This document shows, piece by piece, positions 1 to 356 of a DNA stretch of 356 bases. The notes under the pieces were generated by a model, which made no database searches, was not told the origin of the DNA, and saw only the letters and a program-made list of their open reading frames with translations. The stretch is from Escherichia coli (GTDB lineage: Bacteria; Pseudomonadota; Gammaproteobacteria; Enterobacterales; Enterobacteriaceae), in the NCBI RefSeq assembly GCF_003334385.1, contig NZ_QOWN01000193.1; one strand, written 5' to 3'. Within the stretch, counting starts at the first letter, position 1, and each line of letters opens with the position of its first letter. Made by a program: the position numbers and the translations under genes.

Positions 1-356
1 GGTGAAGGTGATGCATATATTCCGCCTCATACAGGTCTGCCAGCAAACAGTACCGATATTGCACCACCAGATATTCCTGCTGGCTTTGTGGCCGTTTTCA
101 ACAGTGATGAGTCATCGTGGCATCTCGTTGAAGATCATCGGGGTAAAACGGTTTATGACGTGGCTTCCGGCGACGCGTTATTTATTTTTGAACTCGGTCC
201 GTTACCGGAAAATGTTACCTGGTTATCCCCGGAAGGGGGGGTTCAGAAGTGGAGCGGCACAGCCTGGGTGAAGGATACGGAAGCAGAAAAACTGTTCCGG
301 ATCCGGGAGGCGGAAGAAACAAAAAACAGCCTGATGCAGGTAGCCAGTGAGCATAT
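1..356 (+). CDS. tfa: Phage tail fibre assembly protein (Tfa family), internal fragment, partial at both 5' and 3' ends; reading frame begins at position 1
   Basis: Frame 1 is open across the whole window: 118 sense codons with no TAA/TAG/TGA, last 2 nt incomplete. Translation: [118 protein letters not shown]. From memory this closely resembles the N-terminal and central part of E. coli prophage tail fibre assembly proteins (TfaE/TfaQ/TfaR-like, lambda Tfa family), including the motifs [37 protein letters not shown] and [18 protein letters not shown]. The specific paralogue cannot be assigned. No start or stop codon of the gene lies in the window; the in-frame ATG at 334-336 is an internal Met. 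The ORF track did not report this frame, presumably because it has no stop in the window. Confidence 0.85.

Follow-up and report, generated by a model that had tools for sequence, protein, structure and literature searches.

Beyond the edge of a lambdoid tfa fragment in Escherichia coli: a DLP12-like prophage and its katN-containing cargo

Cargo downstream of lambdoid tail-fibre genes is familiar from the b region and morons of phage lambda and from the 'exchangeable effector loci' of the type III secretion system (T3SS) in enterohaemorrhagic Escherichia coli (EHEC). Here we consider a 356-nucleotide stretch of E. coli DNA (the window), an internal part of the tail fibre assembly gene tfa, together with the genes that follow tfa in strain SCU-104, among them a manganese catalase gene, katN, and its operon. 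The closest described relative of that operon is z1921-z1924 of EHEC, which is homologous to Salmonella yciGFE-katN and is located on the cryptic prophage CP-933X (PMC5363993). Wan et al. (2017) named Z1921 KatN and showed its catalase activity (PMC5363993). KatN is induced by RpoS and OxyR, is repressed by H-NS, is secreted by EHEC in a manner dependent on its type VI secretion system (T6SS), and lowers the reactive oxygen species of macrophages; non-pathogenic strains are stated to be without katN (PMC5363993). A 2026 paper restates the Wan et al. view of KatN and z1921-z1924.

KatN of SCU-104 is 98.99% identical over 296 amino acids to that of O157 strain F765, whose accession (WP_000488340.1) is the accession of EDL933 KatN (Z1921). 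Gene order, orientation and the place directly after stf-tfa are the same as for z1921-z1924 on CP-933X of EHEC O157:H7, the YciE-, YciF- and YciG-like proteins and the adjacent methyltransferase of O157 are 100% identical to the SCU-104 copies, and between tfa and ybcY the two strains have collinear DNA with 96.9% identity. The loci differ in integration site (argU/DLP12 in SCU-104, another prophage and site in O157), in host (a healthy-carrier isolate versus EHEC), and in a tfaX-like fragment, IS66/ISEc8 and an alpha/beta hydrolase that lie between the methyltransferase and ompT in O157. The best overall explanation, to which we assign a probability of roughly 0.85, is that the window consists of tfa codons of a DLP12-like prophage at argU, and that this prophage carries a katN module, a ybcY-like gene and ompT as accessory cargo.

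The window lies inside tfa

The window has an exact match (356/356 nt) at one place in 5,426 complete E. coli genomes, the set to which all genome counts below refer. This place is NZ_CP053284.1, 1292824-1293179, in SCU-104, a strain from the rectal swab of a healthy student, and the flanks were read from this genome as the sole 100% match. Positions are given on locus L001 (NZ_CP053284.1 1280824-1305179), in which the window is 12001-12356 and window coordinates are L001 coordinates minus 12000, or on L002, the 45 kb upstream. The second-best match has 8 mismatches (97.8%), and neither phage records nor fetched loci exceed 97.5% identity to the window.

Frame 1 of the plus strand is open through all 356 bases, with a translation that closes in LMQVASEH, and stops interrupt the other two plus-strand frames. 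The open reading frame (ORF) spans L001 11926-12507 (+), beginning 75 nt 5′ of the window and, as the sequence-only reading had anticipated, continuing past position 356, for a further 151 nt to a TAA codon at window-equivalent 505-507. Its product of 193 residues, annotated as 'tail fiber assembly protein' (WP_152066050.1), matches the entire Pfam model Caudo_TAP (PF02413; i-E=4.9e-41, model positions 1-131 of 131) and PHROG 105 'tail fiber assembly' (E=5.9e-98). Residues 127-192 resemble in sequence the Mu gpU chaperone in complex structure 5yvq (5yvq_B); the predicted role of Tfa is that of a chaperone for the C-terminus of Stf. The order of the late operon is J-lom-stf-tfa, with base L001 11926 shared by the end of stf and the start of tfa.

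The same place directly after stf and the same Caudo_TAP domain are found for tfa of phage lambda (orf-194) and for K-12 tfaD, tfaQ and tfaR, which together are 94-97.8% identical to the whole window at the DNA level (94.4% for lambda and 97% for tfaQ/tfaR). K-12 tfaD is rearranged at its N-terminus, whereas SCU-104 tfa is full length. Because a lambda-type Tfa translation runs across the window, bases 300-356 are ordinary codons; they are plain coding sequence of tfa, the predicted side-tail-fibre chaperone gene of a lambdoid prophage. The sequence-only reading had singled out these bases as the edge beyond which accessory cargo should be sought and had seen nothing novel in the window itself. 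The latter judgement stands, since the window is ordinary tfa codons and the only additional annotation on 300-356 is a match to the Rfam family IS009. The remark on these bases directed attention to the flanks and described no statistical pattern, so that a chance expectation does not come into play.

The IS009 match invites the alternative that bases 269-467 are a functional small RNA within the 3′ part of tfa and that 300-356 therefore hold a real feature. With the flank included, the 199-nt model RF02111 aligns to L001 12269-12467 on the sense strand with 227 bits against a gathering score of 117 (the 356-nt window alone falls below threshold). The model matches the 3′ part of K-12 tfaD as well, IS009 is listed among prophage-associated small RNAs in recent surveys, and the segment folds modestly better than its shuffles (z=-2.1). 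Against this, the match lies on the sense strand wholly within an intact coding sequence with a Pfam domain, and among 46 distinct sequences 29 of the 44 variable columns under it are third codon positions. Compensatory, two-sided changes occur at 0 of 23 model pairs in these sequences, a weak test in an alignment that is ~3% divergent (97% column identity), and shuffled controls gave exactly the values observed. Codon-like variation and the lack of compensatory pairs indicate that IS009 probably models coding sequence. The match thus probably reflects how well the coding sequence of tfa is conserved; a real RNA remains as a small chance, which we regard as quite improbable. Since the family seems to capture the coding 3′ part of tfa, annotation pipelines will flag an 'sRNA' inside every such gene.

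A run of seven G residues (Table 1) is among the differences of the SCU-104 allele from lambda and K-12 tfa. At this site the allele reads SPEGGVQKW, where K-12 TfaD has SPEGEFQKW. The run is a possible slippage site, with no evidence of phase variation.

A DLP12-like prophage and its cargo

Upstream of the window, the SCU-104 map shows the full complement of a lambdoid genome: tRNA-Arg (argU), intD, exo/bet/gam, a cI-like repressor gene, O/P and ninE-rusA-Q, followed by lysis genes, terminase, head genes, tail genes, J, lom, stf (990 aa) and, closing both the structural genes of the prophage and its late operon, tfa. An exact 25-mer match to argU, extended to 47 bp, located a direct repeat of the argU 3′ half (CTTCTAAGTCGTGGGCCGCAGGTTCGAATCCTGCAGGGCGCGCCATT) between ompT and envY. 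This repeat is attR, 5.1 kb downstream of the tfa stop, and the two att repeats bound an element of ~46.8 kb. The element is a DLP12-like lambdoid prophage inserted in tRNA-Arg argU.

Comparison with the right arm of K-12 DLP12 (tfaD-ybcY-tfaX-appY-ompT-attR) supports this assignment. The argU site and the position of attR between ompT and envY are common to both, and ybcY, ompT, attR and envY are collinear at 97-98%, with 97% DNA identity for ybcY and 99% amino acid identity for OmpT. K-12 DLP12 lacks the 2.8-kb katN module described below and possesses tfaX and appY, which are missing from SCU-104; it has also lost the head and tail genes that the SCU-104 prophage keeps.

Between the tfa stop and attR, annotation and ORFs agree on six genes, each of them intact, encoded by the minus strand, transcribed towards tfa and located inside the att repeats (Table 1). 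The sequence-only reading would have been contradicted by a downstream flank of attachment site or core host genes only; what lies there is 5.1 kb with six intact ORFs. Of the kinds of cargo it had named, the moron or virulence-effector kind is present in SCU-104 (yciGFE-katN and ompT) and an invertase is not. Full-length families for all six cargo proteins already exist in PHROGs.

Table 1. Positions of features in the window and between tfa and attR of E. coli SCU-104
Feature	L001 position	Window or window-equivalent position	Strand	Basis or remark
Internal part of tfa, residues 26 to ~144 of 193, frame 1		1-356	+	ORF, exact match, Pfam, PHROG
G7 homopolymer in tfa (codons ...E-G-G-V...), in frame		235-241	+	Read from sequence
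Rfam RF02111 IS009 match, 5′ part		269-356	+	Remaining 111 nt beyond window
Flagged stretch, tfa codons only, ~residues 125-143 of 193		300-356	+	ORF
Hairpin after tfa	12513-12539	513-539	Both strands scored	ΔG ~-16 kcal/mol, z=-3.6
katN, manganese catalase, 296 aa	12627-13517	627-1517	-	Pfam Mn_catalase 1e-84
yciE-like, DUF892, 168 aa	13536-14042	1536-2042	-	Pfam; E. coli YciE structure 3ogh
yciF-like, DUF892, 166 aa	14079-14579	2079-2579	-	Pfam; E. coli YciF structure 2gs4
yciG-like, KGG-repeat (KGG twice), 60 aa	14658-14840	2658-2840	-	Pfam
Ancestral tfa hairpin	~15303-15341	~3303-3341		K-12-type hairpin reappears
ybcY-like S-adenosylmethionine (SAM) methyltransferase, 222 aa	15345-16013	3345-4013	-	Pfam Methyltransf_12
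ompT, 317 aa	16244-17197	4244-5197	-	NCBIfam omptin 704 bits
attR	~17620-17666	~5620-5666		47-bp argU repeat

KatN is similar to Anabaena Alr3090 (6j42) and to the manganese catalases of L. plantarum. By inspection of the ligands, its segments GELAAA, EELSHLE, AAEARAK and TREAAHM align with the di-manganese motifs E...ExxH...E...ExxH of Alr3090. The four co-oriented genes of the cluster, encoding a KGG protein, two DUF892 proteins and the catalase, occur in the same order in Salmonella, Enterobacter and Klebsiella loci.

Relative to K-12 DLP12 the katN module is 2.8 kb of extra DNA with boundaries at L001 12490 and 15297. On the left, the break comes immediately behind the conserved ...DIEWP codons of tfa; the final five codons (VIPEV, then the stop) come from the module, as does a hairpin, AAGCCCGC-N10-GCGGGCTT, next to which a T-run lies on the minus strand. 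The right break falls just before a CCGCAG...CTGCGG hairpin, which in K-12 directly follows tfaD. Taken together, the two breaks show the module to be an insertion between tfa and its ancestral terminator. The end of SCU-104 tfa differs from the lambda type (AVPVME) and from DLP12 (TNPVRE) because the module starts right after ...DIEWP. The cluster is oriented opposite to the late operon, and the stable hairpin with its minus-strand T-run, which follows katN, looks like the terminator of a convergent katN transcript.

The space from tfa to attR is the accessory ('b-region' or moron) compartment of the prophage and holds three units: yciG-yciF-yciE-katN, predicted to encode a small KGG-repeat stress protein, two ferritin-like proteins of the DUF892 family and a di-manganese catalase; the YbcY-like SAM methyltransferase; and the outer-membrane protease OmpT. 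By analogy with the 99%-identical EHEC protein, the lysogen would express the operon under the control of RpoS/OxyR and without reliance on phage late transcription. The published EHEC work further suggests that the operon would detoxify hydrogen peroxide and that KatN may be exported into host cells in strains with T6SS-2. The hairpin after tfa most likely ends the katN transcript and would insulate katN from the late operon.

The cluster is not peculiar to SCU-104. We found katN in 382 genomes, in 381 of which the 3′ end of tfa is contiguous with the katN cluster. The module occupies at least three integration sites, namely argU (SCU-104), att-lambda (ybhB-bioA) and the CP-933X site (O157), and is also present on IMG/VR prophage contigs. 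The three strains that carry it at att-lambda are bovine, urinary and river-water isolates. This distribution bears on whether the cluster could be an island of the host chromosome that happens to lie beside the prophage. The paralogous yciGFE is a core chromosomal locus next to ompW in K-12, katN is chromosomal in Salmonella arizonae/diarizonae within a trpA-yciGFE-katN-ompW synteny, and the whole cluster is found in none of the records of a 50,697-phage collection, all of which would suit an island. The SCU-104 cluster, however, lies inside the attL-attR repeats and has 74% DNA identity to E. coli chromosomal yciGFE; together with its place after tfa in all but one of the katN-positive genomes, its three prophage integration sites and its presence on prophage contigs, this makes an island very unlikely and argues for phage-borne cargo.

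A defence function was considered for the cargo, as the sequence-only reading had proposed that the downstream ORFs be searched against defence-system profiles. PADLOC identified no defence system in the SCU-104 cargo, the two matches returned (E=0.003) being noise next to positive controls from other loci at 1e-140 to 0, and a defence identity was rejected. A defence scan of the other accessory ORFs of this prophage yielded only an orphan methyltransferase and one weak PDC-S42 match.

Site-specific invertases had likewise been named, and stf-tfa might be a Din-family invertible host-range switch, as with Pin of e14, Gin of Mu and Cin of P1, with an invertase just downstream. The K-12 genes tfaR and tfaQ, 97% identical to the window, are presumably followed by pin genes, and in two IMG/VR loci a 196-aa serine recombinase comes immediately after tfa (best NCBIfam matches XisF, 5e-24, and Mpi invertase, 1.6e-23, all below curated cut-offs). 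SCU-104 itself speaks otherwise. Between tfa and attR there is no recombinase ORF or annotation, serine invertases included; self-BLAST reveals neither the stf C-terminus nor tfa in an inverted second copy; and no AAACCNNGGTTT-type Din core occurs near stf-tfa. The inverted repeats around stf-tfa, of 15-21 nt with 76-87% complementarity, are not convincing as the crossover sites that had been suggested. As the repeat search, the self-BLAST and the Din-core pattern search gave nothing beyond chance, an invertible segment was rejected for SCU-104, and we hold such a switch to be extremely improbable.

The prophage has further classical passengers, with an intact ompC/nmpC-type porin gene in the interval from Q to the lysis genes, along with iss/bor and lom (L002 26486-27568 and 29359-29652; L001 8290-8889). 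The interior of stf contains three tandem 132-nt repeats (L001 10329-10724; 100/92/64% identity) and shorter in-frame repeats, a typical fibre-shaft repeat structure. Elsewhere in the SCU-104 record (905001-955000, L180) there is an ETT2 type III secretion island in a degraded state, several of its genes being frameshifted or interrupted by stops.

The 3′ end of tfa as a cassette site

The variety of cargo that can follow a nearly constant tfa was surveyed in 80 IMG/VR loci (L100-L179) with 93-96% identical Tfa, whose downstream ORFs were clustered; the first gene after tfa was counted in those loci (~55) where the flank reaches 600 nt or more. The YbcY methyltransferase comes first in 26 loci, including the SCU-104, O157 and K-12 reference loci, and the katN operon in 10, including four reference loci. 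A PD-T4-3 gene with an EcoRII-like type II restriction-modification (RM) pair follows tfa in 8 loci, three of them without the RM pair within the flank covered. Avs2, a type XII RT-TIR retron, DRT UG17 (with a SLATT partner in the one locus with enough flank), PDC-S31, a Pin-like serine recombinase and cdtABC are each first in 2 loci, and a McrBC-like pair is first in 1. The list ends with a DinI-like gene and several ORFs that lack an annotation (clusters C59, C85, C55 and C11), in the first 6 kb after tfa. At least ~15 different genes are found first downstream of such Tfa proteins. The general statement of the sequence-only reading about what lies beyond tfa is borne out by these loci, in which a Pin-like invertase, defence systems and cdtABC all appear.

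All junctions share ...ACTGCACCTGATATTGAGTGGCC and then diverge within the last few codons, right after ...DIEWP, and the CCGCAG...CTGCGG hairpin is common to many of them after the divergence. Many other cargo classes keep this hairpin and a ~45-nt motif (GGCTGGTGAACTTTCNATAGTGCGAGTATTGAATGATTTCCAGC) before diverging (L001 15297-15341; L004 18598-18650). It is possible, and we offer it tentatively as the less probable side of the question, that the last ~20 nt of tfa and the hairpin form a shared recombination joint for swapping cassettes, and that the katN cassette was captured by an aberrant (specialised-transduction-like) excision at the ompW side of yciGFE-katN in an enterobacterium other than E. 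coli and is now spreading into commensal E. coli. The cassettes swapped through such a joint would include stress operons, toxins, RM, Avs, retron and DRT systems, and invertases.

The ompW locus offers a setting for this capture. The right end of ompW-integrated prophages abuts chromosomal yciE in the same orientation that the phage-borne yciE/katN cluster has relative to tfa, which makes capture by aberrant excision plausible. No ompW remnant was found between tfa and katN; only yciE-yciG align to K-12, at 74%. The nearest KatN proteins of species representatives are 85-87% identical (Kosakonia, Phytobacter), which is too distant to pin down the donor lineage. Other vehicles were considered. 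A search of 72,556 plasmids returned no match to the katN cluster, and a plasmid origin was rejected. Carriage by free phage was rejected as well, as no record of the phage collection has the whole cluster; the matches there are fragments at ~75% identity and, in PPompW records, the ends formed by chromosomal yciE. One such prophage, PPompW_132418 (L010 3109-7676, 8824-9289), is a lambdoid prophage at ompW with espO, two copies of nleG, and espM after its tail genes.

Some related loci show variants of this arrangement. In KKa014 (L008 2922-6881), a truncated stf is followed by a tail fibre annotated as 'pyocin knob domain-containing S74 family peptidase', and only the last ~130-140 nt of tfa are left, with the katN module still attached to them, as if the tail fibre had been exchanged and the cargo joint spared. 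A 114-nt ORF after yciG (L006/L007/L008 9673-9787) is annotated 'capsid protein', and in K-12-like strains the label 'nucleocapsid protein' is given to ORFs beside tfa 3′ ends; both annotations look spurious.

The diversity of cargo also raises the alternative that the window comes from another genome, to which the SCU-104 flank would not apply because something else comes after tfa there, such as a Pin-type invertase, a defence system, toxin genes or att itself. Sequence resembling tfa is common (7,809 places in 4,063 genomes), homology between prophages breaks right after the ...DIEWP codons, and the many first-downstream genes come independently of the tfa allele. The sole perfect match to the window and the distance to all other matches, set out above, point to SCU-104 nevertheless, and we consider a different source unlikely.

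Several observations weigh against the assignment of the window to a katN-carrying, DLP12-like prophage or against parts of it. The flank map rests on one exact-match genome. The tfa allele does not predict cargo class: alleles closest to the window (96-97.5%) are followed by PDC-S31, YbcY, PD-T4-3/RM or McrBC-like cargo, and other katN-linked alleles are 94.7-95.2% identical to it. Because cargo is uncoupled from the tfa allele, the flank cannot be guessed from the window. KatN scores below the equivalog cut-off of NCBIfam ManCatBAC (NF052557; 167 versus 350 bits), which makes it a member of the manganese catalase family and not a ManCatBAC equivalog. Promoter-like matches are at chance level (14 found, 14.3 expected). 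Finally, tail gene M has an internal stop, so that the prophage may be defective or non-infectious, with its cargo now inherited only vertically. A frameshifted TraR/DksA gene is present as well (lesions in M and TraR/DksA at L001 2401-2730 and L002 13396-13613).

Relation to described systems

The four-gene architecture of the module is that of the chromosomal sigma-S stress locus yciGFE(-katN) of K-12 and Salmonella. Chromosomal YciE, YciF and YciG of K-12 are 88%, 80% and 93% identical to the proteins of the SCU-104 prophage, and in Salmonella arizonae/diarizonae, where the order is trpA-yciG-yciF-yciE-katN-ompW, KatN is 84% identical. The module differs from the chromosomal locus in being prophage-borne, without ompW or trpA as neighbours, and K-12 yciGFE is related to it at the 74% DNA identity given above.

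The cargo is one already described, consisting of the katN operon together with ybcY and ompT, both classical passengers of DLP12, and nothing in it is new in kind. Little is gained for discovery, as the gene, the prophage type, the cargo operon and the prophage location of that operon are all on record; the locus serves instead as a worked example of the place right after tfa as a cassette site. It also extends the known range of katN, which has been described as a trait of pathogenic E. coli. The carriers SCU-104, KKa014, KS-NP019 and Ec-U14-2 are healthy-carrier, river-water, bovine and urinary isolates, and katN is borne by prophages at three sites; its occurrence in such isolates, strains known here by isolation source, is at odds with the published remark on non-pathogenic E. 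coli.

SCU-104 thus takes its place among the cargo compartments of lambdoid prophages, with which it shares a variable region between tfa and attR and a conserved joint at the 3′ end of tfa. Where other members of this group hold T3SS effectors (as in PPompW), cdtABC, RM systems, Avs2, retron XII or DRT UG17, SCU-104 holds a stress and catalase operon instead.

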